Of a stretch of 24,545 nucleotides of DNA, positions 1,140 to 24,545 are shown one piece after another. The DNA is from a virus (lineage: Duplodnaviria; Heunggongvirae; Uroviricota; Caudoviricetes): IMG/VR virus record IMGVR_UViG_2579778797_000010; one strand, 5' to 3'. The first letter of the stretch is position 1, and each line of letters begins with the position of its first letter. The notes below the pieces were generated by a model. That model saw only the letters and a list, made by a program, of their open reading frames with translations, had not been told where the DNA came from and ran no database searches. Made by a program: the position numbers and the translations under genes.

Positions 1140-1667
1140 CTAGAGACTCTCTCCTTCCTCATCAGGAATTAATTCAGCAGCACAAGCCTCGTAGGATTTT
1201 TCCTGAAGAGTGTATCGCAGGTCATCAATTGCCTGCTGTACAACGCCGACGGCCTGAGGAGTCAGGGCGCAATCGCGTTCAAGAACATCCGGAATTGTCT
1301 CCAGAACCTGGACGACAGCCTTTCTCATGGACGAATAGACGATGACTACTTCATCAACGGGGATGAGTTTTCGCTGCTCCTTTTCCAGCTTGATCCTTTC
1401 ATTTTCAGACTGGTACCAGTCCTTTCTCTCTTTCGGCTCCATACGGGATGGATCATGAACAGAGTCTGCTGCCTCATGCTTCACACTAAACAGGGCTGGC
1501 CCGACATGCTGCAGGGCGTAAACGGGGTTCCCCCTGACAGTCGCAGCCACAGGAGTGTTGGCCGCGAGAAGCCGTTTTTTTACTGTGTCCCGGTGAAGCC
1601 CAAAGGCCTCAGCGATTTTAAAAACACTCCAGTAATAAGCATCACCGATCCCGCTCACATTTGACAT
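1140..1667 (-). CDS. Phage terminase small subunit (lambda Nu1-like; K-12 Qin equivalent is nohA)
   Basis: N-terminal HTH region resembles lambda Nu1 (YYWSVFKIAEAFGLHRDTVKKRLLAANTPV). ATG at 1665-1667 has a GGAG 6-9 nt upstream; upstream ATGs at 1677-1679 and 1695-1697 lack an SD. Confidence 0.75.
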   Translation of the reverse strand: MSNVSGIGDAYYWSVFKIAEAFGLHRDTVKKRLLAANTPVAATVRGNPVYALQHVGPALFSVKHEAADSVHDPSRMEPKERKDWYQSENERIKLEKEQRKLIPVDEVVIVYSSMRKAVVQVLETIPDVLERDCALTPQAVGVVQQAIDDLRYTLQEKSYEACAAELIPDEEGESL

Positions 1668-1839
1668 AAGCAACTCCATCTGGCAGGTGAAAATCATGTT
1701 TATTTATATATTTCAATTAATTGTAAACTGATCTAATGACAGGGAGAAAAAAATATTGTACAGGTAAAAAGAGAAATAACTTTTAATTATCAATAAATTA
1801 CCAAACATGCTGCCGCCGCCATGGAAATGCAAAAACTAG

Positions 1840-1920
1840 CCTTTTTCCGCGACGCTCCCGCCCCGTGGCAGGGGCCCCCACCGGGAGGACCCGACAGCCT
1901 GACAGCCTGACAGCCGTGAC
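1840..1920 (-). other. Candidate cos site (cosN-like GC-rich core plus tandem octamers) upstream of Nu1
   Basis: Minus strand reads GGGGCGGGAGCGTCGCGGAAAAAGGC, resembling the lambda left end GGGCGGCGACCTCGCGGGTTTTCGC, about 180-200 bp upstream of the Nu1 start. GACAGCCT GACAGCCT GACAGCC lies at 1893-1915. Confidence 0.4.
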
Positions 1921-2051
1921 GAGCATCTGATACAGCGCTTTACATAATGGCATAGGAATAATTCAGAAGGACATCACAGCATGCCCACACAAATTAGTGT
2001 GAGTGTCCTGTTTCTTCCTACGCACAGGACTGACGAGCATGAGGGGAAAAT

Positions 2052-2219
2052 ATGCGAACCATAAATGCCTCATCTTCAGCAATGCAGCCGGCATCCGAAC
2101 AGGACGATATTGTAAATTCACCTAATTACGAGGACATTGCAGTAGTTGAATTGCAGCTCTGTATTAGCCTGACAGTGACAGAATGCGATATTGACTCTGT
2201 CACAGGTGAAATAGTTTGA
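2052..2219 (+). CDS. Hypothetical small acidic protein (55 aa)
   Basis: ATG at 2052 preceded by GAGGGG; hand-translated as MRTINASSSAMQPASEQDDIVNSPNYEDIAVVELQLCISLTVTECDIDSVTGEIV. Below the ORF-track size cutoff. Confidence 0.3.
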   Translation: MRTINASSSAMQPASEQDDIVNSPNYEDIAVVELQLCISLTVTECDIDSVTGEIV

Positions 2220-2239
2220 ATGATTAGCAGTTATGGTGC

Positions 2240-2446
2240 TCAGTCAACCACCAGGGAATAATCCTTCGAATTCTTATCGTGCTTCACCAACGCTGCCTCA
2301 ATTGCCCTGAATGCTTCCAGAGACACCTGATGTTCTATACATGCAATTACAACATCCGGGTAACTCATAGAAATGGTGCTATTAAGCATATTTTTTACAC
2401 GAATCAGATCCAACGAGAGTTCATCAGCAGATTGTTCTTTATTCAT
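2240..2446 (-). CDS. Hypothetical protein (68 aa), possibly the ynfO-position gene of Qin
   Basis: ATG at 2444-2446 with GGAG 7-8 nt upstream; convergent with the 2052-2219 ORF; sits between Nu1 and the ydfO-like gene. Confidence 0.5.
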
Positions 2447-2746
2447 TTTGTCGCTCCATGCGTTTGCTCGTCATCTAGCGGTTAAAATATTACTTCAAAT
2501 CTTACTGCATAAAAGAGGAAAAGTATGAAAGTTTGAGTACATCGACCTTACATACATCTGTCGGTTGCATATCCCTCCTGGATGCCAGCAAGGCTCAATT
2601 TTGTTACGCAATCAACACTATTCATTAAAAACAGGCTTAATATTTGACATAAATCATCAACAAAACACAAAGAGGTCAGACCAGATTGAAACAATAAACA
2701 CGATAATGCAAACTACGCGCCATCGTATCACATGGAAGGTTTACCA

Positions 2747-3157
2747 ATGGCTCAGGCTGCCATTTTTAAAGAAATATTCGATCAAGTGCGTAAAGATTTA
2801 AACTGTGAATTATTTTATTCTGAGCTAAAACGTCACAATATCTCACTTTATATTTACTATTTAGCCACAGATAATATTCACATTGTGTTAGAAAACGACA
2901 ACATAGTGTTAGTAAAAGGACTCAAAAAGGTTGTAAATGTTAAATTCTCCAGAAACAAACATCTTATAGAGACCTCCTATAATAAGTTGAAATCAAAAGA
3001 AATCACATTTCAACAATACAGGGAAAATCTTGCTAAAGCAGGAGTTTTCCGATGGGTTACAAATATCCAGGAACACCAAAGATATTACTATGCCTTTGAT
3101 AACTCATTACTATTTACTGAAAGCATCCAGAAAACTACACAGATCTTACCACGCTAA
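2747..3157 (+). CDS. ydfO: DUF1398-family protein (YdfO/YbcV-like)
   Basis: 136-aa ORF from the internal ATG at 2747 (GGAAGG SD upstream): [30 protein letters not shown]... Position matches ydfO in Qin. Confidence 0.6.
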
Positions 3158-3308
3158 ACCATAACGTCCGGCTTCTCTCACTCCTGAGCCGGACTGCATT
3201 GGTTTAATAAAAACCATCAACAATTGTGATTTAGATATTCGGAACCATTCAAATATAACAAAACCCCGTAAAAACGAGGTTTATGGATAAATTTTATTAT
3301 TGAATACA

Positions 3309-3485
3309 TCAGATTAAATTAATCTTGACATCATAGCTTTCAAGACCCGTCATTTTTTCCCGTGCGGTAAACTGAATACTGGTAACTTCTTTCCCGGTCT
3401 TTTTCTTAAGTTCAATAATTTTTTTTGTTATATATTCAGAAATATCTGCTTCTGCTTTTGTTTTTAAGTTTTCAATATTCATCAT
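3309..3485 (-). CDS. gnsB: GnsA/GnsB-family small protein
   Basis: 58-aa ORF hand-translated codon by codon: MMNIENLKTKAEADISEYITKKIIELKKKTGKEVTSIQFTAREKMTGLESYDVKINLI. Strong AGAGGA SD. Below the ORF-track cutoff. Confidence 0.8.
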   Translation of the reverse strand: MMNIENLKTKAEADISEYITKKIIELKKKTGKEVTSIQFTAREKMTGLESYDVKINLI

Positions 3486-3653
3486 TTCCTCTTTTAGTCT
3501 GTTATGACTTTCCAGTTACACAGTAAGTCGATTATATGGTGCAAACGTGTAAAAGATAAGATGAAACATCGCAATAATCAACATACGATAGTCTAAATTT
3601 TACACAAACAGACAAAGAGAATTTTCCTGAATTATCAATACAATAGCATCAAA

Positions 3654-3884
3654 TCAACTCAAGAGCCTTATTGCTGCTTCCAGAATTTCTTCTGAAGTAA
3701 CATGTCGATCCGCGGCTACATAAATGACTTTATGATCTCCGGTCAGAGATGGAAACCCTGCGGCCATTACAGTAAGGTGTGTTTTTTCGCCATTTGGATA
3801 TTCACGCATGATGGTGTTAACTCCAGTCATCGCTGGCACTACCACTGCTGGTTCAGAGTTAAAAAAAACTATGATTTTTTTCAT
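3654..3884 (-). CDS. Hypothetical protein (76 aa) at the ynfN position between cspI and gnsB
   Basis: ORF 3654-3926 begins at a TTG; first in-frame ATG at 3882-3884 (MKKIIVFFNSEPAVVVPAMTGVNTIMREYPNGEK...). Weak SD. Confidence 0.4.
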   Translation of the reverse strand: MKKIIVFFNSEPAVVVPAMTGVNTIMREYPNGEKTHLTVMAAGFPSLTGDHKVIYVAADRHVTSEEILEAAIRLLS

Positions 3885-3928
3885 GATGTTACCGTAGTAT
3901 GTGAGTATCCATCGAATAGATACCAAGC

Positions 3929-3948
3929 AAAAAAGCTCCCGAAGGAGC
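3929..3948 (-). terminator. Possible intrinsic terminator downstream of cspI
   Basis: Short GC stem GCTCC-CGAA-GGAGC; on the minus strand it is followed by a run of six T. Confidence 0.3.
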
Positions 3949-4155
3949 CTTCATTTTCACTTTTTTAAATCCAACGACAGACGGCTGGCATTTAAGTATT
4001 GTGAAATATTATCAAATGTAATCATCATTGATTTACAAAAGATACATTTTGCCCCGAAAGGATTCATGTCAGAAACATCAAAAGATGATGTTCTATACTG
4101 GGAACCATGACAACACGGGCATCTAAAGTGAATATGGTTTGTAATATTGTCTACC

Positions 4156-4368
4156 TCAAAGCGCCACTACATGAACAGCGGCAGGACCTTTAGGTCCGTT
4201 CTCAATACCAAATTCAACTTCCTGATTCTCAGTTAATGTTTTGAAATCGTTGCTCTGAATTGCTGAGAAATGGACAAACACATCTTTGCTGCCATCTTTC
4301 GGCGTGATGAAACCAAAACCTTTTTCAGGGTTAAACCATTTCACTAAACCAGTCATTTTGTTAGACAT
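4156..4368 (-). CDS. cspI: Cold shock protein CspI
   Basis: 70-aa product [70 protein letters not shown]; ATG at 4366-4368 checked. Confidence 0.95.
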
Positions 4369-4731
4369 AATTATTACCTTTTGAAGAAATTAGCCCTTGG
4401 GCAGAATGGTCCGAAAAAAAATATCAGAGAGAAAAACCAACAAGGAAATCTCAAGAGGTACAAATAATAAAATTATAACAATGACTGCTTCAGATAAATT
4501 TGTAACAAACCAGAACACCATTAACGCATGATTAACCACCCATAGCAAGGATTACTTTTGTAAAGAAAAACACAGCAATGAAAGAATAGCTTTATTTATT
4601 AATAATAACGTGTCATTCTGATTAAGACCTTTTATCTTACCCTTAAGATTTCAGGAGTTTTGGCTCATGGAAGAGTCCTTTTTATTTAAATTTTACATTC
4701 CGCGATGTAAATGTTCCGATTTAATATTACC

Positions 4732-5755
<1,024 letters not shown>

Positions 5756-5759
<4 letters not shown>

Positions 5760-6067
5760 ATATATTTATGATGAGGACGCTCGTGCTTATTGGCAGGATT
5801 TTCAATCTTAAAGGAGTACTGATGCTGCAGATAAGACTCAACTTTTTCTGACAATTTTTCTGCTACTTCCAGGAAGACTTGCCGGACGCTCCTTCTGGCT
5901 GCTGCCTCATAAAACTCCAGCGCAGCTCCTTCAACACGGTCCATGGCGACATCCAGGTCAAAAATTTCACCGTCAAAGCGTTCTTTGTCCTGTAAGGCTA
6001 CAGTTACCGTAACTTTATTCTCAAAATTACGGACTCCTTTCACAACCAGTTCATAGTCTTGAGTCAT
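5756..6067 (-). CDS. Hypothetical protein between holin and endolysin (YdfR-like, 103 aa)
   Basis: ATG at 6065-6067 with GGAGAG SD, 4 nt after the holin stop; translationally coupled to the lysozyme gene. Confidence 0.6.
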
Positions 6068-6071
6068 TGGA

Positions 6072-6287
6072 TTACTCTCCTCTCGCAGCCTTACGCCTGT
6101 CTTCTTTAATCTTGAAATAAAGATTTGTCAGATACGTCAGCAGGCCAAAAACCAGGCTACCCAGCACACCGATTGCAGCCCACTGTGACGGAGTTACTTT
6201 ATCGAGTAACTGCAATGCCCAGAAACCAGCATTACCCGCCGATGTGCCATAGGCAACACCTGTTGTTAACTTATCCATTGATTTCAT
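6072..6287 (-). CDS. Phage-21 S-type pinholin (class II holin) with dual start
   Basis: 71-aa product [71 protein letters not shown]; ATGs at 6285-6287 and 6276-6278 give the Met1/Met4 dual-start motif. Confidence 0.85.
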
Positions 6288-6506
6288 ATCCTCACCCCGA
6301 TGTACACGGATGGTGCAATATGTTTGAAAAGATCGGAGTCTACGGGGTAGTTTTGACAGCACACGCTGTTCTCAACGGCGCTAAAGAAACATACACATTA
6401 AAAATGTGAGTAATTATTTTGAAAGAAAGTCATATATAAAATAATAATACGAGAAATGTTTTCATATTTAGTGTACTGTATACGGCCATTTATACAGGAA
6501 AAGCCT

Positions 6507-6677
6507 ATGTCAGAACGTAAAGACTCAAAATCACGCCGTAATTATCTCGTTAAATGTTCCTGCCCAAACTGCACCCAAGAGTCAGAACACAGTTTTTCAA
6601 GAGTACAAAAAGGTGCCCTTTTGATCTGCCCTCATTGCAACAAAGTATTCCAGACAAATCTTAAAGCTGTAGCCTGA
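6507..6677 (+). CDS. Small zinc-ribbon protein (56 aa; CPNC...CPHC)
   Basis: Internal ATG at 6507 with an AGGAAAAG SD: MSERKDSKSRRNYLVKCSCPNCTQESEHSFSRVQKGALLICPHCNKVFQTNLKAVA. Confidence 0.5.
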   Translation: MSERKDSKSRRNYLVKCSCPNCTQESEHSFSRVQKGALLICPHCNKVFQTNLKAVA

Positions 6678-6736
6678 TTGATTTTATTAGTAACAAGTAT
6701 TTTTTATATTTTAATAATATATTTAAAGCAGATAAT

Positions 6737-6760
6737 AAAAAACCCGCCTGAGCGGGTTTG
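6737..6760. terminator. Bidirectional intrinsic terminator hairpin (between the zinc-ribbon ORF and cspB)
   Basis: AAAAACCCGC-CTGA-GCGGGTTT: GC stem with A-run on one side and T-run on the other. Confidence 0.5.
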
Positions 6761-7040
6761 AGATTGTGGTGCTTTTTGTGGGAGTCATCCACTTACGCAC
6801 TTTGTTTTGCCATGCCAGCAGTTAGCTTCTGCTGTAAAACTATTCATGCAGCAAACCTGCACTTCACCACAATGGTTAGCATACTTTTCCTGATTAAGAT
6901 TTTGCCAAATATGCTGGCCATTGTTTCATGTATTGGACCTCCTTAATTTTTATTAAAGAAATCCAATATTCACTACTCTGTCCGTATCTCTACTCAGGCA
7001 TCAGCCTTCTTCGTTATCGTATACAGACGAGCGATGAATT

Positions 7041-7256
7041 TTAATCAGTAATGATGACATTTGCTGCTGCAGGACCTTTAGCACCACTCTCTATAGAGAA
7101 GGTAACCTTTTGACCTTCAAATAAGGTTCGATAATTATCATTCTGAATCGCAGAAAAATGCACAAACACATCTTTACTACCATCAACAGGAGAAATAAAG
7201 CCGAAACCTTTATCAGCGTTAAACCATTTTACTAAACCAGTCATTTTATTTGACAT
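7041..7256 (-). CDS. cspB: Cold shock protein CspB
   Basis: 71-aa product [71 protein letters not shown]; start and stop verified. Confidence 0.95.
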
Positions 7257-7556
7257 TCTACATTCCTTAACTTGAGCCTTTCGGCATAAATGGTTTGCAT
7301 AACAGAAACGACTTCGTACTTAATTGGAGAGACTCAAAGAAGGAATAAGTGAATAACACCTGAAATGAGAACTGCTTTAGTAAACTACTTCGTATATCGT
7401 CTGTTCTTCAAACCGACGCAATCATTAACGCATAGTTGAACATATGAAGCAATGTTTATTTTAGACATCCAGCCATCTTCAACCCCATCAAAAAACTATA
7501 GCTTTCTTCAGGAACGTGTGTATAGTGCGCCAAGTTATCAGTATTAAGGAATTTTT

Positions 7557-12639: not shown

Positions 12640-14280
12640 CACTTTTGTGGGGACAGTCCACAAAACTGCCAACTTCCGCTTCTTGCTCTTAGCGGACATT
12701 AGCATAGGCTATTTACCATAACGCCTCATTACGCGCACCGCCCAGACTGACTCAGCGCGTTTCTGGCATATCCCCGGTAAAACAAGTAACAAACCACCCG
12801 AAAATGAACACCAGAAACGCGACTTAAGAATCTACCCTATGAATGGATATGCACTCAACCGAATCGATCTTGGTTTCAATCTATTTTATCGGGATCAGGC
12901 TTCTTTTTAGGTAACTTCGGGGGCTTAACTTGCTGATGACTTTGCGTTCGGCGCGTAAGCCAGGGATGGTCAGCTTTAGATTTAACATAGTATTTTGAGC
13001 GTAAATCAATACGGGCATTATCCACTCGTTCATGGACACTCTTTTCATCATCCAGTGGTATAGGCTCCGGGCCATCAACATACTTTTCCCAGCCCAGCGC
13101 TTTCCCGTCATACAGAACGTTAATTTCACCGTCAAAGTTCTCACATACAGTAACAACTGAATGCCTAAGTCGATATCCCCGGCCCTCACTGCGTACCTGA
13201 AACGCACTGCTTTTGTACTGGAAAGTGAGATTTTTAGACAGAACGCGCTTCGCCTGTAGGCTGAAGATATAACCCAGTTCCTCTTCAGAATGGTGCACAT
13301 CAAGATGAGCATTATCAGTAGTACGAGGCGACGTAGCGAACCGGTTGTTATAGGCTTCAATAAAGGTCGGCAACCATGCATTTGCTGTTTCAATATCACT
13401 GATATTCTGAAGCCGCATTTCTTTGACCAGCCTGTCCTGTAGTGTCTGATTGGCGCGCTCTACCCGCCCTTTTGCCTGCGGGCTGTTGGCATGGATTGGC
13501 TCGATGCCCAGTGTCTTTATCGCACGAGTGAACTGGGTCAGCTCACCTTCCCGCTCTGGGTTATTTACCCTGAATATACTGTGTCTATCAGAGTAGAGAG
13601 CGAGCGGTACGCCATGATCATTAAGGTAACCCCGGAGGGTTTCCATGTAAGCCCGGGTTGTTTCAGCAGGCACAAAACGCAACGCCATCAACGCACTGGT
13701 GGCATCATCAATGAAAACGATCAGTGTACATCTGGGGCCTCGATTTTCAAACCAGTCATGAGGTGAGCCATCAATCTGGATCAGTTCACCGTAAGATGGT
13801 CGTCGCATGCGGCGTTGATATATACGGGCAATTTTACGACGGCGTTCACGCCATAACCCCTCTTCTATCATCCACTTTCTGAGAGTTTCAACGGATAAAG
13901 ATAAACCGTGTATCTCGCGCAATTTTTCGCACGCAAACGTAGGTCCAAAATCAGCGTAACGGCCTTTGAGGAGTGAAATTACTGTTGCTCTGAATTCAGT
14001 AGAAAAGGAATTATTAGGACGCTTTCCACGTCGGTGGGAAACCAGACCAGAAGGCCCTTCATTTCTATACCGTTGCACCAGACGTTTAACCTGCCGAATA
14101 GAAATGCCAATGCGTGCCGCAGCTTGTTCCTGAGTAATATGTCGATTAATTGACTCCTGAATAATCTGAAGTCGGTGGAGTTCCTTATGACTCATCGTAA
14201 CAGTCTCTTTGATCATGAAAAATCCCCCAGAGAATTGTCTGGGGACATTTTAGAATGGTTCAAAGGGGACATTACAGCTT
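12640..14280 (-). mobile_element. Insertion element carrying an rve/DDE transposase (IS481- or ISNCY-like); boundaries approximate
   Basis: Single large transposase gene with HTH N-terminus. GGGGACA motifs at 12648-12654 and at 14241-14247 and 14265-14271. Terminal inverted repeats could not be resolved by eye. Confidence 0.45.
12876..14216 (-). CDS. DDE transposase with integrase-core (rve) domain and N-terminal HTH
   Basis: 446 aa; HTH (ITQEQAAARIGISIRQVKRLVQRY), catalytic candidates in ELIQIDGSPHDW, ALYSDRHSIF and PQAKGRVERANQTLQDRL (D, D, E spacing typical of retroviral-integrase-type transposases). Confidence 0.85.
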   Translation of the reverse strand: MIKETVTMSHKELHRLQIIQESINRHITQEQAAARIGISIRQVKRLVQRYRNEGPSGLVSHRRGKRPNNSFSTEFRATVISLLKGRYADFGPTFACEKLREIHGLSLSVETLRKWMIEEGLWRERRRKIARIYQRRMRRPSYGELIQIDGSPHDWFENRGPRCTLIVFIDDATSALMALRFVPAETTRAYMETLRGYLNDHGVPLALYSDRHSIFRVNNPEREGELTQFTRAIKTLGIEPIHANSPQAKGRVERANQTLQDRLVKEMRLQNISDIETANAWLPTFIEAYNNRFATSPRTTDNAHLDVHHSEEELGYIFSLQAKRVLSKNLTFQYKSSAFQVRSEGRGYRLRHSVVTVCENFDGEINVLYDGKALGWEKYVDGPEPIPLDDEKSVHERVDNARIDLRSKYYVKSKADHPWLTRRTQSHQQVKPPKLPKKKPDPDKID

Positions 14281-18056: not shown

Positions 18057-18115
18057 TTTTCTGGTGACGTTTGGCGGTATCAGTTTTACTCCGTGACTGC
18101 TCTGCCGCCCTTTTT
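18057..18115 (+). ncRNA. dicF: DicF small RNA (ftsZ/cell-division inhibitor sRNA)
   Basis: TTTCTGGTGACGTTTGGCGGTATCAGTTTTACTCCGTGACTGCTCTGCCGCCCTTTTT matches DicF as I recall it, including the terminal GC hairpin and U-tail. Confidence 0.85.
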
Positions 18116-18284: not shown

Positions 18285-18473
18285 ATGAAAACGTTATTAC
18301 CAAACGTTAATACGTCTGAAGGTTGTTTTGAAATTGGTGTCACTATCAGTAACCCTGTATTTACTGAAGATGCCATTAACAAGAGAAAACAAGAACGGGA
18401 GCTATTAAATAAAATATGCATTGTTTCAATGCTGGCTCGTTTACGTCTGATGCCAAAAGGATGTGCACAATGA
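18285..18473 (+). CDS. dicB: Cell division inhibitor DicB
   Basis: 62 aa from the ATG at 18285: MKTLLPNVNTSEGCFEIGVTISNPVFTEDAINKRKQERELLNKICIVSMLARLRLMPKGCAQ. Confidence 0.95.
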   Translation: MKTLLPNVNTSEGCFEIGVTISNPVFTEDAINKRKQERELLNKICIVSMLARLRLMPKGCAQ

Positions 18474-18661
18474 ATTCAGCATTTGCGCTTGTTCTGACAG
18501 TTTTTCTTGTTTCCGGAGTGCCAGTTGATATTGCAGTCAGTGTTCACAGGACAATGCAGGAGTGTATGACTGCAGCAACCGAACAGAAAATTCCCGGTAA
18601 CTGTTACCCGGTCGATAAAGTTATTCACCAGGATAATATCGAAATCCCGGCAGGTCTTTAA
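18470..18661 (+). CDS. ydfD: YdfD (small membrane lysis protein)
   Basis: 63 aa from the ATG at 18470, overlapping the dicB stop: MNSAFALVLTVFLVSGVPVDIAVSVHRTMQECMTAATEQKIPGNCYPVDKVIHQDNIEIPAGL. Confidence 0.9.
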   Translation: MNSAFALVLTVFLVSGVPVDIAVSVHRTMQECMTAATEQKIPGNCYPVDKVIHQDNIEIPAGL

Positions 18662-18754: not shown

Positions 18755-19579
18755 ATGAGTAAAGTCTTTATTTGCGCCGCTATTCCTGACGAACTGGCAA
18801 CAAGGGAAGAAGGCGCTGTGGCTGTAGCCACAGCCATTGAAGCTGGCGACGAACGCCGTGCTCGAGCAAAATTTCACTGGCAGTTCCTGGAACATTATCC
18901 GGCTGCTCAGGACTGCGCTTATAAATTTATTGTCTGCGAGGATAAACCTGGCATACCCCGCCCTGCCCTCGATTCATGGGATGCTGAATATATGCAGGAA
19001 AACCGCTGGGATGAGGAGTCTGCTTCTTTTGTCCCGGTTGAGACTGAATCCGATCCGATGAACGTCACTTTTGACAAGCTGGCCCCTGAAGTACAGAACG
19101 CTGTCATGGTTAAGTTCGACACATGTGAAAACATCACCGTTGATATGGTTATTAGCGCACAGGAATTGTTGCAGGAAGACATGGCAACATTCGACGGACA
19201 TATCGTTGAAGCGTTGATGAAAATGCCAGAAGTTAACGCCATGTATCCGGAGCTTAAGTTGCACGCCATTGGGTGGGTTAAGCATAAATGTATTCCTGGT
19301 GCTAAATGGCCCGAAATTCAGGCAGAGATGCGCATCTGGAAAAAACGTCGCGAAGGTGAACGCAAGGAAACCGGAAAATACACGTCTGTTGTTGATCTCG
19401 CCCGCGCCAGAGCCAATCAACAGTACACTGAAAATTCAACAGGAAAAATCAGCCCGGTCATTGCTGCCATTCATCGCGAATACAAGCAGACATGGAAAAC
19501 ACTGGATGACGAACTGGCCTACGCTCTCTGGCCTGGTGATGTGGATGCCGGAAACATTGACGGCAGCATCCATCGCTGA
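18755..19579 (+). CDS. YdfE-like protein (274 aa), ending at an in-frame TGA continuous with the next ORF
   Basis: ATG at 18755; same reading frame as the 19637-21226 ORF, separated only by the TGA at 19577-19579. Confidence 0.65.
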   Translation: MSKVFICAAIPDELATREEGAVAVATAIEAGDERRARAKFHWQFLEHYPAAQDCAYKFIVCEDKPGIPRPALDSWDAEYMQENRWDEESASFVPVETESDPMNVTFDKLAPEVQNAVMVKFDTCENITVDMVISAQELLQEDMATFDGHIVEALMKMPEVNAMYPELKLHAIGWVKHKCIPGAKWPEIQAEMRIWKKRREGERKETGKYTSVVDLARARANQQYTENSTGKISPVIAAIHREYKQTWKTLDDELAYALWPGDVDAGNIDGSIHR

Positions 19580-19636
19580 GCAAAAAAAGAAGTTATCGAC
19601 AACGACCGCGAAGACTGGAAGCGTATCTCGGCATCA

Positions 19637-21226
19637 ATGCGCAAACAGCCTGATGCCCTTCGCTACGACCGCCAAACTATTTTTGGCCTTGTCCGTGAGC
19701 GTCCGATCGACATTCACAAAGATCCCGTAGCACTGAACAAATATATCTGCGAATACCTGACGACAAAGGGCGTGTTTGAGAATGAAGAAACAGACCTGGG
19801 CACTGTTGATGTTCTCCAGTCATCAGAAACACAAACTGATGCAGTGGAAACTGAGGTATCTGATATCCCAAAAAATGAAACCGCGCCGGAAGCTGAACCA
19901 TCTGTAGAGCGTGAGGGGCCGTTCTATTTCCTCTTCGCAGATAAGGACGGAGAAAAATACGGTCGCGCAAACAAACTTTCTGGTCTGGATAAGGCACTGG
20001 CTGCTGGCGCCACTGAAATCACAAAAGAAGAATATTTTGCCCGAAAAAATGGCACATACACGGGCTTACCGCAAAATGTAGATACCGCTGAAGATTCAGA
20101 ACAACCAGAGCCGATAAAAGTTACCGCTGACGAAGTAAACAAAATTATGCAGGCAGCCAATATCAGCCAGCCTGACGCCGATAAGTTGCTTGCTGCCTCT
20201 CGCGGAGAATTTGTTGCAGGGATTAGTGACCCGAATGATCCGAAATGGGTTAAGGGGATCCAGACCCGCGATTCTGTGAACCAGAACCAGCATGAATCGG
20301 AACGGAACTACCAAAAAGCGGAACAAAACAGTCCAAATGCGTTACAAAACGAGCCAGAAACGAAACAGCCTGAACCAGTGGCGCAACAGGAAGTGGAAAA
20401 AGCCTGCACCGCCTGCGGTCAGACCGGCGGCGGCAACTGCCCTGATTGTGGCGCGGTGATGGGCGACGCAACATACCAAGAAACATTCGATGAAGAGTAT
20501 CAGGTTGAAGTTCAGGAAGATGATCCGGAGGAAATGGAAGGCGCTGAACATCCACACAAGGAGAACACTGGCGGCAATCAGCATCACAATAGCGATAATG
20601 AAACTGGCGAGACGGCAGATCACCCAATTAAGGTGAACGGTCATCACGAAATCACATCCACCAGCAGGACGTGTGACCATCTAATGATCGACCTTGAAAC
20701 CATGGGAAAAAATCCTGATGCCCCGATCATCTCAATAGGTGCAATATTTTTCGATCCGCAAACCGGAGATATGGGACCGGAATTTAGTAAGACTATCGAT
20801 CTGGAAACTGCTGGCGGAGTCATTGATCGGGACACCATTAAATGGTGGCTTAAGCAATCACGCGAAGCGCAATCTGCCATTATGACCGATGAAATCCCGT
20901 TAGATGATGCACTGTTACAATTGCGGGAATTTATCGACGAAAACTCCGGTGAATTTTTTGTTCAGGTTTGGGGAAATGGAGCCAACTTCGACAACACGAT
21001 TTTGCGCCGTTCATACGAACGGCAGGGGATCCCCTGCCCGTGGCGTTACTACAACGATCGCGATGTACGCACAATCGTTGAGCTGGGGAAAGCCATAGAC
21101 TTCGATGCCAGAACGGCTATTCCATTCGAAGGTGAGCGCCATAATGCACTTGATGACGCCCGTTACCAGGCAAAATACGTTTCAGTTATCTGGCAAAAAC
21201 TGATCCCGAGTCAGGCTGATTCTTAA
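19637..21226 (+). CDS. Protein with acidic low-complexity N-region, C4 zinc ribbon and C-terminal DEDDh-type 3'-5' exonuclease domain
   Basis: Motifs in DnaQ-like order and spacing: MIDLETMG (exo I), WGNGANFD (exo II), HNALDDARY (exo III, H-x4-D); zinc ribbon CTACGQTGGGNCPDCG. Confidence 0.65.
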   Translation: MRKQPDALRYDRQTIFGLVRERPIDIHKDPVALNKYICEYLTTKGVFENEETDLGTVDVLQSSETQTDAVETEVSDIPKNETAPEAEPSVEREGPFYFLFADKDGEKYGRANKLSGLDKALAAGATEITKEEYFARKNGTYTGLPQNVDTAEDSEQPEPIKVTADEVNKIMQAANISQPDADKLLAASRGEFVAGISDPNDPKWVKGIQTRDSVNQNQHESERNYQKAEQNSPNALQNEPETKQPEPVAQQEVEKACTACGQTGGGNCPDCGAVMGDATYQETFDEEYQVEVQEDDPEEMEGAEHPHKENTGGNQHHNSDNETGETADHPIKVNGHHEITSTSRTCDHLMIDLETMGKNPDAPIISIGAIFFDPQTGDMGPEFSKTIDLETAGGVIDRDTIKWWLKQSREAQSAIMTDEIPLDDALLQLREFIDENSGEFFVQVWGNGANFDNTILRRSYERQGIPCPWRYYNDRDVRTIVELGKAIDFDARTAIPFEGERHNALDDARYQAKYVSVIWQKLIPSQADS

Positions 21227-21298
21227 TGTTCAACTGTCGCCGGTTGTGACTGGTATTCTGCAACCGGCGCTCGTCTGATGTAAGAGATAAAGAAATCG

Positions 21299-21550
21299 AT
21301 GAGCGAAGTAATCATGATTGTCTCTCCCGGCAAATGGGTATCCGAAGAGCAGTTAATTGCGCTGAAAGGAATAAAAAAAGGTACGTTAAAAAAGGCCCGG
21401 GAAAAATCGTTTATGGAAGGAAGGGAATATAAGCATGTCGCTCATGACGGTATGCCATGGGATAACAGTCCATGCTTTTACAACCTGGAAGAAATTGATC
21501 GCTGGATTGAGCGCCAGGCATCAGCGAGACCAAGACGTCATCTTACTTGA
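21299..21550 (+). CDS. Excisionase-like protein (xis) upstream of int
   Basis: 83-aa ORF immediately upstream of and co-oriented with the integrase; ATG at 21299 (alternative at 21314). Confidence 0.55.
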   Translation: MSEVIMIVSPGKWVSEEQLIALKGIKKGTLKKAREKSFMEGREYKHVAHDGMPWDNSPCFYNLEEIDRWIERQASARPRRHLT

Positions 21551-21569: not shown

Positions 21570-22865
21570 ATGAGAGAAGTTGAAATGAAATATCCGACAG
21601 GCGTGGAAAACCATGGAGGGAAATTACGTATCTGGTTTGTTTATAAAGGCGTAAGAGTCAGGGAAAATCTGGGGGTTCCTGACACAGCAAAAAACAGGCG
21701 CGTTGCAGGTGAACTACGCTCCTCTGTTTGTTACGCAATAAAAACTGGTGTTTTCGACTATGCAAAACAGTTTCCCTCCTCACGCAATCTGGAAAAATTT
21801 GGTGAGGCCCGACAAGATTTAACCATAAAAGAACTGGCTGAAAAATTTCTGGCACTGAAAGAAACTGAAGTCGCCAAAACATCACTCAACACATACCGTG
21901 CCGTCATCAAAAATATCCTGAGCATAATCGGTGAAAAAAATCTTGCCTCATCGATTAATAAAGAAAAATTACTGGAGGTTCGTAAAGAGCTACTGACTGG
22001 ATACCAGATCCCCAAAAGTAACTATATTGTTACACAACCAGGGAGATCGGCTGTAACTGTAAATAATTACATGACAAATCTTAACGCCGTGTTCCAGTTT
22101 GGTGTTGATAACGGTTACCTGGCAGATAATCCGTTTAAGGGGATCTCGCCATTAAAGGAATCAAGAACCATTCCGGATCCTCTTGCGCGGGAGGAATTTA
22201 TCCGTCTTATCGATGCGTGCAGAAATCAGCAAGCAAAAAATTTATGGTGTGTTTCTGTTTATACTGGCGTTCGCCCTGGTGAGCTGTGTGCACTTGGATG
22301 GGAGGACATAGATCTGAAAAATGGAACAATGATGATCAGGAGAAATTTAGCAAAAGACCGTTTCACGGTACCAAAAACACAGGCGGGAACCAATCGGGTC
22401 ATTCATCTTATTAAGCCAGCAATCGACGCTCTCCGGAGTCAGATGACATTAACGAGACTGAGCAAAGAGCATATCATTGATGTTCACCTCAGAGAGTATG
22501 GCAGAACAGAAAAACAAAAATGCACCTTTGTTTTTCAACCTGAAGTGTCAGCGAGAGTAAAAAATTATGGTGACCATTTTACCGTTGACTCAATAAGGCA
22601 GATGTGGGACGCAGCGATAAAACGTGCCGGACTCCGCCATCGAAAATCATATCAGTCGAGACATACTTATGCCTGCTGGTCGCTGACAGCTGGGGCTAAC
22701 CCGGCATTTATAGCAAACCAGATGGGCCATGCAGATGCGCAAATGGTATTTCAGGTATACGGAAAATGGATGTCTGAAAACAATAATGCACAGGTAGCTT
22801 TGTTAAATACACAGTTAAGCGAGTTTGCCCCAACCATGCCCCATAACGAAGCAATGAAAAATTAA
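21570..22865 (+). CDS. Tyrosine recombinase, lambdoid prophage integrase
   Basis: 431 codons (likely start at the ATG at 21585, MKYPTGVENHGGKLRIWF); C-terminal catalytic motifs HxxR and Y (SRHTYACWSL, HADAQMVFQVYGKW); arm-binding-type N-terminus. Confidence 0.9.
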   Translation: MREVEMKYPTGVENHGGKLRIWFVYKGVRVRENLGVPDTAKNRRVAGELRSSVCYAIKTGVFDYAKQFPSSRNLEKFGEARQDLTIKELAEKFLALKETEVAKTSLNTYRAVIKNILSIIGEKNLASSINKEKLLEVRKELLTGYQIPKSNYIVTQPGRSAVTVNNYMTNLNAVFQFGVDNGYLADNPFKGISPLKESRTIPDPLAREEFIRLIDACRNQQAKNLWCVSVYTGVRPGELCALGWEDIDLKNGTMMIRRNLAKDRFTVPKTQAGTNRVIHLIKPAIDALRSQMTLTRLSKEHIIDVHLREYGRTEKQKCTFVFQPEVSARVKNYGDHFTVDSIRQMWDAAIKRAGLRHRKSYQSRHTYACWSLTAGANPAFIANQMGHADAQMVFQVYGKWMSENNNAQVALLNTQLSEFAPTMPHNEAMKN

Positions 22866-23676: not shown

Positions 23677-24545
23677 GTAAGCGTGCAGCAAGAACCGTAT
23701 TGACGGGGATGTGTTATTCAGTCGGCAGTGCTACGCGCCAGGGGAGCAGTTCGCCGACCCGGTTTATCGGCCAGTCGGCTATGACGTCAAGGACATAGCG
23801 GAGGTAGCTTTCTGGCTCCACTCCGTTCAGTTTGCACGTCCCGATCAGGCTGTACAGCAGCGCTCCCCGCTCTCCTCCATGATCCGAACCGAAGAACAGG
23901 TAGTTTTTGCGGCCCAGACTGACCATCCGCAACGCATTTTCAGCGATGTTATTGTCCGCCTCAGCCCAGCCATCATCTGCATAGTACGTCAGCGCCGGCC
24001 ACTGGTTCAGGGCGTATGCGAACGCTTTCGCCAGTTCTGAGTGTCGCGACAGGGTTTTCATCTTTTCACGCAGCCAGCTTTCCAGGGATTTCAGCAGCGG
24101 TTTCGTTTTCAACTGACGTTCGGCAAGGCGCTGCTCCGCCGTCATTCCCCTTATCTCTGCCTCGATGGCGTACAGTTCGCCGATCCGTTTCAGCGCTTCC
24201 TCCGTCAGGGCTGACGGGGTGCGAACGTGCACATCGTGGATTTTACGGCGGGCGTGAGCCCAACAGGCGGCTTCCGTTATCCGGCCATCCCGGTACAGCT
24301 CGTTGAACCCGGCGTATGCATCCGCCTGCAGTACACCACTGAACCCCGCAAGATGGGTCTGCGGATGGATGCCTTTTCTGTCCGGGCTGTAAGCGAACCA
24401 CATCGCCGGCGCCAGCGTTGACCCGGCGTTACGGTCGTCACGAACGTAGGTCCATAACCGCCCGGTCTTCGTTTTCTTATTGCCTGGCAACAGCACCGGG
24501 ACAGGCGTGTCATCAGCATGGAGCTTACCGTCAGTCAGCACATAG
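23677..24545 (-). mobile_element. IS66-family insertion sequence, one end (continues beyond window)
   Basis: Terminus GTAAGCG at 23677-23683 ~30 bp beyond the transposase stop; TnpC reading frame runs to the window edge. Confidence 0.7.
23714..24545 (-). CDS. IS66-family transposase TnpC, C-terminal part (partial, runs off window)
   Basis: 275+ codons with the IS66 C-terminal region ([18 protein letters not shown]...[12 protein letters not shown]...[55 protein letters not shown]). Confidence 0.85.

Follow-up and report, generated by a model that had tools for sequence, protein, structure and literature searches.

A predicted DEDDh 3'-5' exonuclease domain in place of the RecE nuclease in the full-length form of the Escherichia coli prophage gene ydfE

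The stretch of DNA analysed here (24,545 nucleotides, hereafter the window; IMG/VR virus record IMGVR_UViG_2579778797_000010) is a Qin-type lambdoid prophage at rspB, and its last gene ahead of the excisionase (xis) and integrase (int) genes, at 18755..21226, is the full-length form of the K-12 pseudogene ydfE. In intact relatives this gene has 823 codons and its product, as judged from sequence comparison, has a composite structure: a YdfE-type N-terminal region is followed by a central scaffold homologous to RecE of the Rac prophage, and a DEDDh (DnaQ-like) exonuclease domain, predicted to act in the 3'-5' direction, sits exactly at the site where RecE carries its PD-(D/E)XK 5'-3' nuclease. 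The copy in the window is a nonsense pseudogene. The gene, its parts and its operon neighbours all lie on the + strand.

The exonuclease domain (20678..21193; Pfam, motifs, AlphaFold2 and Foldseek) belongs to the DexA/Rv2179c family. It was first noted at the end of an open reading frame (ORF) of 529 amino acids (aa) at 19637..21226, whose numbering we use unless the intact protein is named. An initial annotation, made from the letters alone, had described its C-terminal ~180 aa as DnaQ-like, and this description is borne out. Pfam PF16473 (Rv2179c-like 3'-5' exoribonuclease domain) matches aa 348-519 with E=1.3e-67 and 227.3 bits against a cut-off of 27, spanning profile positions 2-177 of 177, while the general RNase_T/DEDD family matches the same domain more weakly. 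The catalytic motifs D352-L-E354-T, NGANF-D452 and H502-x4-D507 are intact; their residues correspond to D646, E648, D746, H796 and D801 of the intact protein. In an alignment of 53 sequences D352 is invariant, and E354, D452, H502 and D507 are kept in at least 90% of the sequences; in an alignment with T4 DexA and the standalone homologues, which is unreliable around DexA's His, no variation is seen at D352, E354, D452 or D507. DexA (PDB 8KEL/8KEN) was the only solved structure retrieved by sequence, and it also came first by fold: the AlphaFold2 model built on the 53-sequence alignment is confident for aa 345-525 (predicted local distance difference test, pLDDT, 83-96), and its top Foldseek match is 8KEL (E=2e-11, target template modelling score 0.66-0.72), ahead of RNase T, oligoribonuclease/REXO2, ERI and Cap18. 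The 50 listed matches to this model are all DEDDh-type, and none among them has a RecE or lambda-Exo fold. Both profile and model thus place the domain in the DEDD(h)/DnaQ superfamily with a complete catalytic set, and we predict that it is a metal-dependent 3'-5' exonuclease. Outside the catalytic set, DexA W152 aligns with Y472 and D169 with A494 (the standalone homologues keep W and D), a provisional correspondence in a region that is gap-rich near D169; DexA D90 aligns with D424, to which A425 is adjacent, so that a one-residue shift would alter the reading.

The region ahead of the nuclease is what ties the protein to RecE. In the intact protein, residues 262-627 (19538..20635) align with Rac RecE 278-592 (BLASTP, E=3e-62), with 40% identity overall and roughly 80% across RecE ~457-590, the latter estimated from the printed alignment, which ends at 'ADHPIKV' / 'AD-PVIV', immediately before the RecE C-terminal nuclease domain. 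The NCBIfam RecE equivalog PRK09709 (exodeoxyribonuclease VIII) matches over model positions 324-600 of 877 (E=1.7e-75), its score of 254.8 bits falling far short of the equivalog cut-off of 1269; Pfam found neither the PD-(D/E)XK nuclease domain (DUF3799) on the window ORF nor the N-terminal Exonuc_VIII (PF06630) on the 274-aa N-terminal ORF. Three parts of the shared region stand out. The most conserved scaffold motif, DKLLAASRGEFVxGISDPNDPKWVKGIQTRD (20180..20272), taken from a domain map of 37 long family representatives, occurs with 89% identity in Rac RecE and also in most of these representatives, whatever their C-terminal domain. The zinc ribbon CTACGQTGGGNCPDC (20405..20449, aa 257-271) is nearly identical to the Rac RecE ribbon CNACGQTGGDNCPDC; it is not resolved in the AlphaFold2 model (pLDDT ~41). 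An acidic, His-rich linker of 76 aa follows (20450..20677, aa 272-347), homologous to RecE ~531-592 and predicted to be disordered (pLDDT <50), with 13 E, 7 D and 7 H among its first 75 residues. A ribbon and an acidic linker before the nuclease had been seen at the outset, with the cysteine pairs given as CxxC-x9-CxxC; both elements are there, and the spacing is CxxC-x7-CxxC. Since the RecE homology spans the ribbon and the linker and stops at the RecE nuclease, these two elements are inherited RecE scaffold and the catalytic domain is the part that was exchanged. Besides the nuclease, the only confidently folded part in the model is a small module of strands and helices, GPFYF...GRANKL...EITKEEYFARKNG (19916..20053, aa 94-139; pLDDT 74-84), which recurs in family members bearing other effector domains; the rest is predicted to be disordered.

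An ordinary homologue search with the central region gave only close E. coli fragments, and it was HMMER, run exhaustively against sequence representatives, that brought out how diverse the family is (117 representatives, clustered at 50%). We mapped the 37 long representatives against reference domains and spot-checked some of them by Pfam. Their C-terminal parts are a DEDDh domain in 6 of the 37, a RecE-type PD-(D/E)XK domain (DUF3799) in 13, an unrecognised domain of ~280 aa, here called class C, in 8, and a tail of ~45 aa in 4; the remaining ones either have a C-terminal domain that was not recognised or appear to be deletion derivatives, and one is a RecE-RecT fusion. YdfE-type and RecE-type (Exonuc_VIII) N-termini are each found paired with DEDDh, PD-(D/E)XK and class C domains. 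In P0385, aa 1-277 are 100% identical to Rac RecE and the C-terminus is 99% identical to the DEDDh domain of the window; its locus reads sieB, kilR, ydaE, fusion gene, xis, int, with no recT. The DEDDh fusions 813R8, P0389 and P0417 are likewise the last gene ahead of (xis-)int and have no annealase, a RecT gene overlaps the end of the PD-(D/E)XK fusion gene of P0422 and is coupled to it, and the gene downstream of P0460 encodes an uncharacterised 271-aa protein. On these assignments, the scaffold carries interchangeable C-terminal effector domains.

Class C is represented by P0414, P0429, P0435, P0446, P0461, P0476, P0486 and P0492, which contain the motif GEAxKKSLTDAxKKALSxLGFSADVxLGLYD, and the domain gave no Pfam match and no sequence match in the PDB. 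Class C fusion genes (loci L021, 4001-6337, and L022, 4001-6211) have an overlapping Sipho_Gp157/Mu-Gam-like gene downstream, and that of P0429 has a Gam-like gene upstream. The segment KKSLTDAxKKALSxLGF had raised the idea of a Rad52-type annealase; this identification is unsupported, given an hhalign probability of 0.1 against epsilon34 gp36 and the lack of Pfam and PDB matches.

The 529-aa ORF that the initial annotation treated as the gene does exist, starting at the first ATG downstream of a stop codon, but it is a fragment: it makes up the distal two-thirds of the 2472-nucleotide (nt) gene, of which the 274 codons upstream are also part. The ORF at 18755..19579 (274 aa) is in frame with that at 19637..21226, a premature TGA at 19577..19579 (W275*) being the sole break, and PHROG scans cover both end to end with phrog_2082, an 823-aa 'exonuclease' family. 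The closest complete genomes have a single 2472-nt coding sequence (WP_000048324.1), labelled 'exonuclease' or '3'-5' exonuclease'; its copy in NZ_CP027140 differs from the window gene at 6 of the 2472 nt, one of the changes being TGG (Trp275) to TGA. None of the 3,538 matching complete-genome records contains the exact 61-mer with the TGA, and 3,506 of them are ~1 nt away from it. The exact 529-aa product was found on two contigs only, from the sister assemblies E. coli 1-250-04_S4_C1 and S4_C2, and the window is an entire draft contig of one or the other of these; the intact 823-aa form is present on at least 1000 contigs. This distribution argues that the TGA is either a nonsense allele private to the strain or an error of sequencing common to both sister assemblies. 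Selenocysteine insertion or programmed read-through at the TGA is ruled out by the TGG of the intact relative and by the near-identity of 3,506 of the 3,538 records, and a weak NCBIfam match to 'ribbon_DG_selen' (E=0.05) sits on the zinc ribbon, away from the stop codon. By eye, no well-placed Shine-Dalgarno sequence was seen before the ATG at 19637, so efficient independent translation of the 529-aa ORF is doubtful. The expected product in the window strain would then be the truncated 274-aa N-terminal fragment only; a little full-length protein, with the wild-type residue restored, could still be made if the UGA is decoded by tRNA-Trp, and inefficient re-initiation at 19637 may also occur.

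The N-terminal region itself (274 codons, 18755..19576) provides the link with K-12. Its first 256 aa are 100% identical to the Qin pseudogene ydfE (b1577), which in K-12 is truncated by IS2E, and this identity marks the gene at 18755-21226, at the level of sequence, as the full-length form of K-12's IS2-truncated ydfE. The named homologues of the region are all from Escherichia or Shigella; precomputed records assign PF27430 (YdfE_N) and PF27432 (YdfE_C) to homologues, while the 274-aa ORF had no match in our local Pfam copy. Structure prediction, which is confident for the nuclease, is uninformative here (pLDDT 34, AlphaFold2 on the single sequence without an alignment), and with homologues of so narrow a range little improvement is to be expected.

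The gene is abundant. A 2.7-kb query centred on it has matches in 4,800 of 5,426 complete E. coli genomes and is covered to at least 80% in 3,486 of them, at a median of two places per genome, which puts a near-full-length copy in about 64% of complete E. coli genomes. An intact gene, with 99.9% protein identity, occupies the same position in the plaque-forming phage HannyBb (PP925841). Compared with diverged fusion alleles, the ratio of nonsynonymous to synonymous substitution rates (dN/dS) is 0.09-0.14 for the DEDDh domain, with dS near saturation, and 0.2-0.45 for the scaffold; from the first of these values, purifying selection acts on the nuclease domain and the gene is under selection in phages generally, although the window copy is broken. 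Among the database relatives, P0053 is a standalone exonuclease of 185 aa that matches the fused domain of the window identically in its C-terminal half and is of the standalone type in its N-terminal half, and P0041, P0056 and P0403 are in-frame internal-deletion derivatives in which the YdfE N-terminus is joined straight to the nuclease; they suggest frequent recombination and deletion inside the gene.

Within the prophage the gene has a defined regulatory setting. The order is lysis genes, a Q-type antiterminator, relBE-hokD, an O-like replication gene and a cro/cI-type pair (DicC/DicA analogues), followed by ydfA, the DicF RNA, dicB, ydfD, the exonuclease gene, xis, int and rspB. DicF (18059-18110; Rfam RF00039, 76.7 bits) precedes dicB in the exonuclease operon; dicB (18285-18473) and ydfD (18470-18661) were placed from the annotation of a 99.9%-identical STEC409 locus (offset +637); xis (21299-21550) has the Pfam domain DUF1233; and the tyrosine integrase (21570-22865; Arm-DNA-bind_2 and Phage_integrase) is followed by the rspB attachment site. 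Consensus matching on the + strand gave no promoter-like site in the interval from ydfD to the exonuclease gene, and hence no candidate for a dedicated promoter just upstream of it, so the gene reads as the distal cistron, and indeed the last one, of the DicA-type-repressed dicB (early-left, pL-like) operon. It had been proposed initially that the gene occupies the slot in which lambdoid phages carry recombination exonucleases, between the dicB operon and int-xis. The place is the same as that of Rac recE-recT, and this part of the proposal is strengthened because aa 262-627 are homologous to RecE 278-592 and the homology ends at the start of the RecE nuclease; the gene is, however, inside the dicB operon rather than between it and int-xis. 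The exonuclease stop codon and xis are 72 nt apart, and this gap holds a perfect 8-bp inverted repeat (GCCGGTTG, 14 nt, CAACCGGC; 21239-21268), which has no T-run after it and was not flagged by the terminator scan; it might form a hairpin for RNA processing or retroregulation, or serve as a site for protein binding.

The absence of a recT/bet-like annealase nearby, which had also been remarked on initially, holds. PHROG scans of the early-left ORFs gave no annealase encoded between the repressor gene and int, and tblastn with RecT, Rad52-type annealase, the single-stranded DNA-binding protein SSB, Abc2 and Gam gave nothing in the window or in HannyBb, Redbeta, Erf and Sak4 not being among the queries. 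An annealase is absent from six DEDDh-fusion contexts, namely the window and the HannyBb, 813R8, P0385, P0389 and P0417 loci. The window contains six Chi octamers (GCTGGTGG, either strand) at 5334, 9316, 9368, 9901, 9958 and 20658, the last one inside the exonuclease gene; against expectations from base composition the counts, small as these samples are, come to 6 versus ~0.5 in the window and 7 versus ~1.3 in HannyBb. Lambdoid phages that have no Rec module, are rich in Chi and depend on RecBCD form a large class (Zheng et al. 2025, PMC12315714), and the Chi excess of the window and HannyBb without a Rec module fits this class.

The exonuclease domain is present in 748 phage records. Its standalone homologues have 182-190 aa, no scaffold and 55-60% identity across the whole domain. 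In the P22-like phage epsilon34 the homologue is gp34 (182 aa, 56% identical), encoded between SSB and Abc2 and adjoining a Rad52-type annealase, and in Salmonella ST64B-like prophages it is a 189-aa protein encoded by the last gene ahead of xis and int of the same type. The ST64B-like cassette (L010-L015, ~1600-7200) reads YfdP, DUF2303 (YfdQ), a deoxynucleoside monophosphate (dNMP) 5'-phosphatase-like gene, a DndB-like gene, the DEDDh exonuclease, xis (DUF1233) and int. Zheng, Casjens, Smith et al. (2025, PMC12315714) include DnaQ-like nucleases among the members of lambdoid Rec modules and describe sporadic copies near int outside recognisable Rec modules; the window gene, as the last cistron before xis-int, fits this second group. 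T4 DexA has DNA as its substrate and takes part in the breakdown of host DNA and in intron homing (Kang et al., Nucleic Acids Research 2025, PMC12153337), and the same study reports that EcD ('HREX'), an E. coli homologue of DexA, degrades T4 DNA and, when expressed from a plasmid, protects cells. EcD is not the window domain: the cloning primers (MIDTET... / ...TIPETY for EcD, as against MIDLET... / ...SQADS) exclude this. A 2026 preprint (PMC13344964) describes DEDDh exonucleases called 'TONDO', carried by prophages and plasmids and variable in their auxiliary domains, which block MS2 and Qbeta. Our literature search found no paper on ydfE or on fusions of a RecE scaffold with a DEDDh domain.

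As to function, we tentatively favour, with a confidence that stops a little short of even, an induction-expressed 3'-5' exonuclease that acts on DNA ends and serves phage recombination or replication via host functions, with no phage annealase. After prophage induction or infection the protein would be made alongside the other early-left products; the RecE-type scaffold would bring the nuclease to the very DNA ends, or the host partner, that serve RecE, and two-metal catalysis by the DEDDh residues would remove single nucleotides from free 3'-OH ends. Its likely role would be to trim the 3' tails or ends of broken or replicating DNA for host recombination (RecBCD/Chi/RecA) or replication, and, no phage annealase being needed, it would be a polarity-reversed, annealase-independent counterpart of RecE, unlike a RecET-type system. 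A link with recombination is supported by the position of epsilon34 gp34 within a Rec module, by the published membership of DnaQ-like nucleases in such modules (PMC12315714) and by the action of T4 DexA on DNA (PMC12153337). Several considerations weigh against this proposal: strand annealing and RecA loading would call for the polarity opposite to 3'-5'; recombination is usually lowered by cellular DnaQ-type exonucleases (PMC12315714); delivery to the same target as RecE is deduced from shared sequence; the samples behind the Chi counts are small; the family also acts on RNA, Rv2179c being named by Pfam as an exoribonuclease; EcD is reported as an antiphage nuclease (PMC12153337); and the place beside xis-int could merely be where cargo accumulates.

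The activities reported for EcD and for the prophage-borne enzymes that block MS2 and Qbeta (PMC12153337, PMC13344964) raise the alternative that the gene is for prophage defence, destroying incoming T-even DNA modified with 5-hydroxymethylcytosine (5hmC), as reported for HREX, or the 3' ends of RNA-phage genomes, as reported for TONDO enzymes, with the N-terminal regions as auxiliary or targeting parts. The persistence of the gene in cryptic prophages in ~64% of complete E. coli genomes and a weak PADLOC match to a generic CRISPR-associated DEDDh model (E=9e-6) agree with such a role. We nevertheless think it unlikely, because EcD is a different protein by its termini, the equivalents of DexA W152/D169 are Y472/A494 (where the alignment is gap-rich), PADLOC matched no dedicated defence-system model, and a scaffold common to RecE and RecT-linked relatives points to DNA-end metabolism; moreover, the distal cistron of a lysogen-repressed operon with no promoter-like site of its own would be unlike typical lysogen-expressed defence genes. 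If the protein acted on RNA, it would trim or degrade RNAs of the host or the phage, or small oligonucleotides, in the course of induction, for which one may point to the naming of the Pfam family after M. tuberculosis Rv2179c, described as a 3'-5' exoribonuclease domain, to RNase T, oligoribonuclease and ERI ranking right behind DexA in the fold search, and to the RNA regulator DicF that the operon already holds. This seems very unlikely to us: the scaffold is shared with the double-stranded DNA exonuclease RecE, DexA, the closest phage relative to have been characterised, is a DNase, and no RNA-binding domain was detected in the protein.

DexA, the closest solved relative, suggests in turn a scavenging or host-takeover nuclease that would convert DNA fragments to dNMPs in lytic growth (PMC12153337), and in the ST64B-like cassette the standalone homologue is two genes downstream of the dNMP 5'-phosphatase-like gene, with the DndB-like gene between them. 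We give this possibility very little credence, since the operon holds no endonuclease partner and the fusion to a RecE scaffold would be left unexplained. Furthermore, no temperate lambdoid phage is known to break down the host chromosome. Finally, the gene might be decaying cargo without present function, its persistence reflecting the slow erosion of cryptic prophages and the nonsense allele its normal fate; the broken copies in the window and in K-12, the latter cut by IS2, and the many deletion derivatives in databases (such as P0041, P0056 and P0403) would all be expected. For the family this is highly improbable, being contradicted by the selection data (dN/dS of 0.09-0.14 in the nuclease domain and 0.2-0.45 in the scaffold), by the conserved catalytic residues, and by the intact 823-aa form on at least 1000 contigs and, at 99.9% identity, in a plaque-forming phage; yet it is true of the window copy.

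A wider proposal, which is speculative and in our opinion quite unlikely as it stands, extends the favoured role in DNA-end processing to the family: the RecE-type N-terminal and central regions would be a general delivery platform with interchangeable DNA-end effectors, namely PD-(D/E)XK 5'-3' nucleases with RecT, DEDDh 3'-5' nucleases without an annealase, and the ~280-aa class C domain flanked by Gam-like genes, and the DEDDh versions would embody a polarity-reversed strategy of end processing. If so, Chi-bearing phages without a Rec module would pass blunt or 5'-tailed ends to the host RecBCD/RecA, lambdoid phages would have a third route to recombination-dependent growth, and there would be a first clue to what the non-catalytic 600 residues of RecE, long unexplained, do.

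The window itself offers an ordinary result in practical terms, a nonsense allele of a known, annotated gene. The gene is abundant and was already annotated, and its class, DnaQ-type nucleases in lambdoid operons, has been noted in print; three points do not seem to have been set out before, namely that the catalytic domain of RecE is precisely replaced, that the gene belongs to a modular family, and that a DEDDh effector goes with the absence of RecT. This is one of the commonest E. coli prophage genes, found in about two-thirds of complete genomes and often in several copies, of which K-12 ydfE is a remnant. A nuclease of the reverse polarity has cleanly taken the place of the RecE catalytic domain, and RecT is missing from all the DEDDh contexts that were checked; the combination amounts to a natural experiment that bears on the role of RecE's 600 non-catalytic residues and on DNA-end processing in lambdoid phages without a Rec module. 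It also bears on the two recent claims that prophage and bacterial DEDDh exonucleases are antiviral effectors: if an antiviral role applied here, one of the commonest prophage genes of E. coli would be a defence gene.

Other features of the window were recorded along the way. Both of its ends are insertion sequences (IS), an IS3-family element at the left end (1-~860, with an ALIL frameshift pseudoknot at 412-528) and an IS66-family transposase at the right end (23677-24545), which truncates rspB, and these elements probably caused the assembly break. Upstream of cspI and cspB, the cold-shock genes of the prophage, there are two cspA-type RNA thermoregulator leaders (4129-4514 and 7025-7417, - strand). 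A 446-aa ORF (12876-14216, - strand) that separates the replication genes from ydfW encodes an IS1202/ISEsa1-like transposase (helix-turn-helix and rve_3 domains); this ORF is an incomplete pseudogene in the annotation of the closest complete genomes.

Compared with known systems, the window protein shows the following likenesses and differences: (i) two-component modules of the RecET or lambda Red type require an adjacent annealing protein, and none was found beside the window gene. (ii) The standalone DnaQ-type nuclease of epsilon34, gp34, is part of a canonical Rec module (Rad52-type annealase, SSB, exonuclease, Abc2), whereas the window gene stands without a Rec module. (iii) T4 DexA, likewise phage-encoded, is the best match to the window domain by both sequence and fold and has the DEDDh residues conserved, but it is a standalone protein of 227 aa with extra loops and ~21-27% identity, whereas the window domain forms the C-terminal end of a scaffold protein of 823 aa, and the DexA residues for 5hmC recognition and tetramer formation are not conserved alike in it. 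(iv) EcD/HREX is also a DexA-family DEDDh exonuclease of E. coli, but a different gene product with other termini, tested as a standalone plasmid-borne protein; DexA W152 and D169 are needed for cleavage of 5hmC-DNA, and in the provisional alignment the window domain has Y/A there, while the HREX type is also marked by loss of the DexA D90 equivalent (a dimer-only state), a position at which the window domain has D424 or, with a shift of one residue, A425. (v) RecE of Rac is likewise encoded in an early-left operon between kil/dicB-type genes and xis-int and has the GISDPNDPKW motif, the CxxC-x7-CxxC ribbon and the acidic linker in common with the window protein. Rac has recT beside recE, whereas no recT follows the window gene; the N-terminus is Exonuc_VIII in RecE and of the YdfE type in the window protein, although some sister DEDDh fusions have Exonuc_VIII; and the catalytic domain is PD-(D/E)XK/DUF3799 (5'-3') in RecE and DEDDh, with a predicted 3'-5' polarity, in the window protein.

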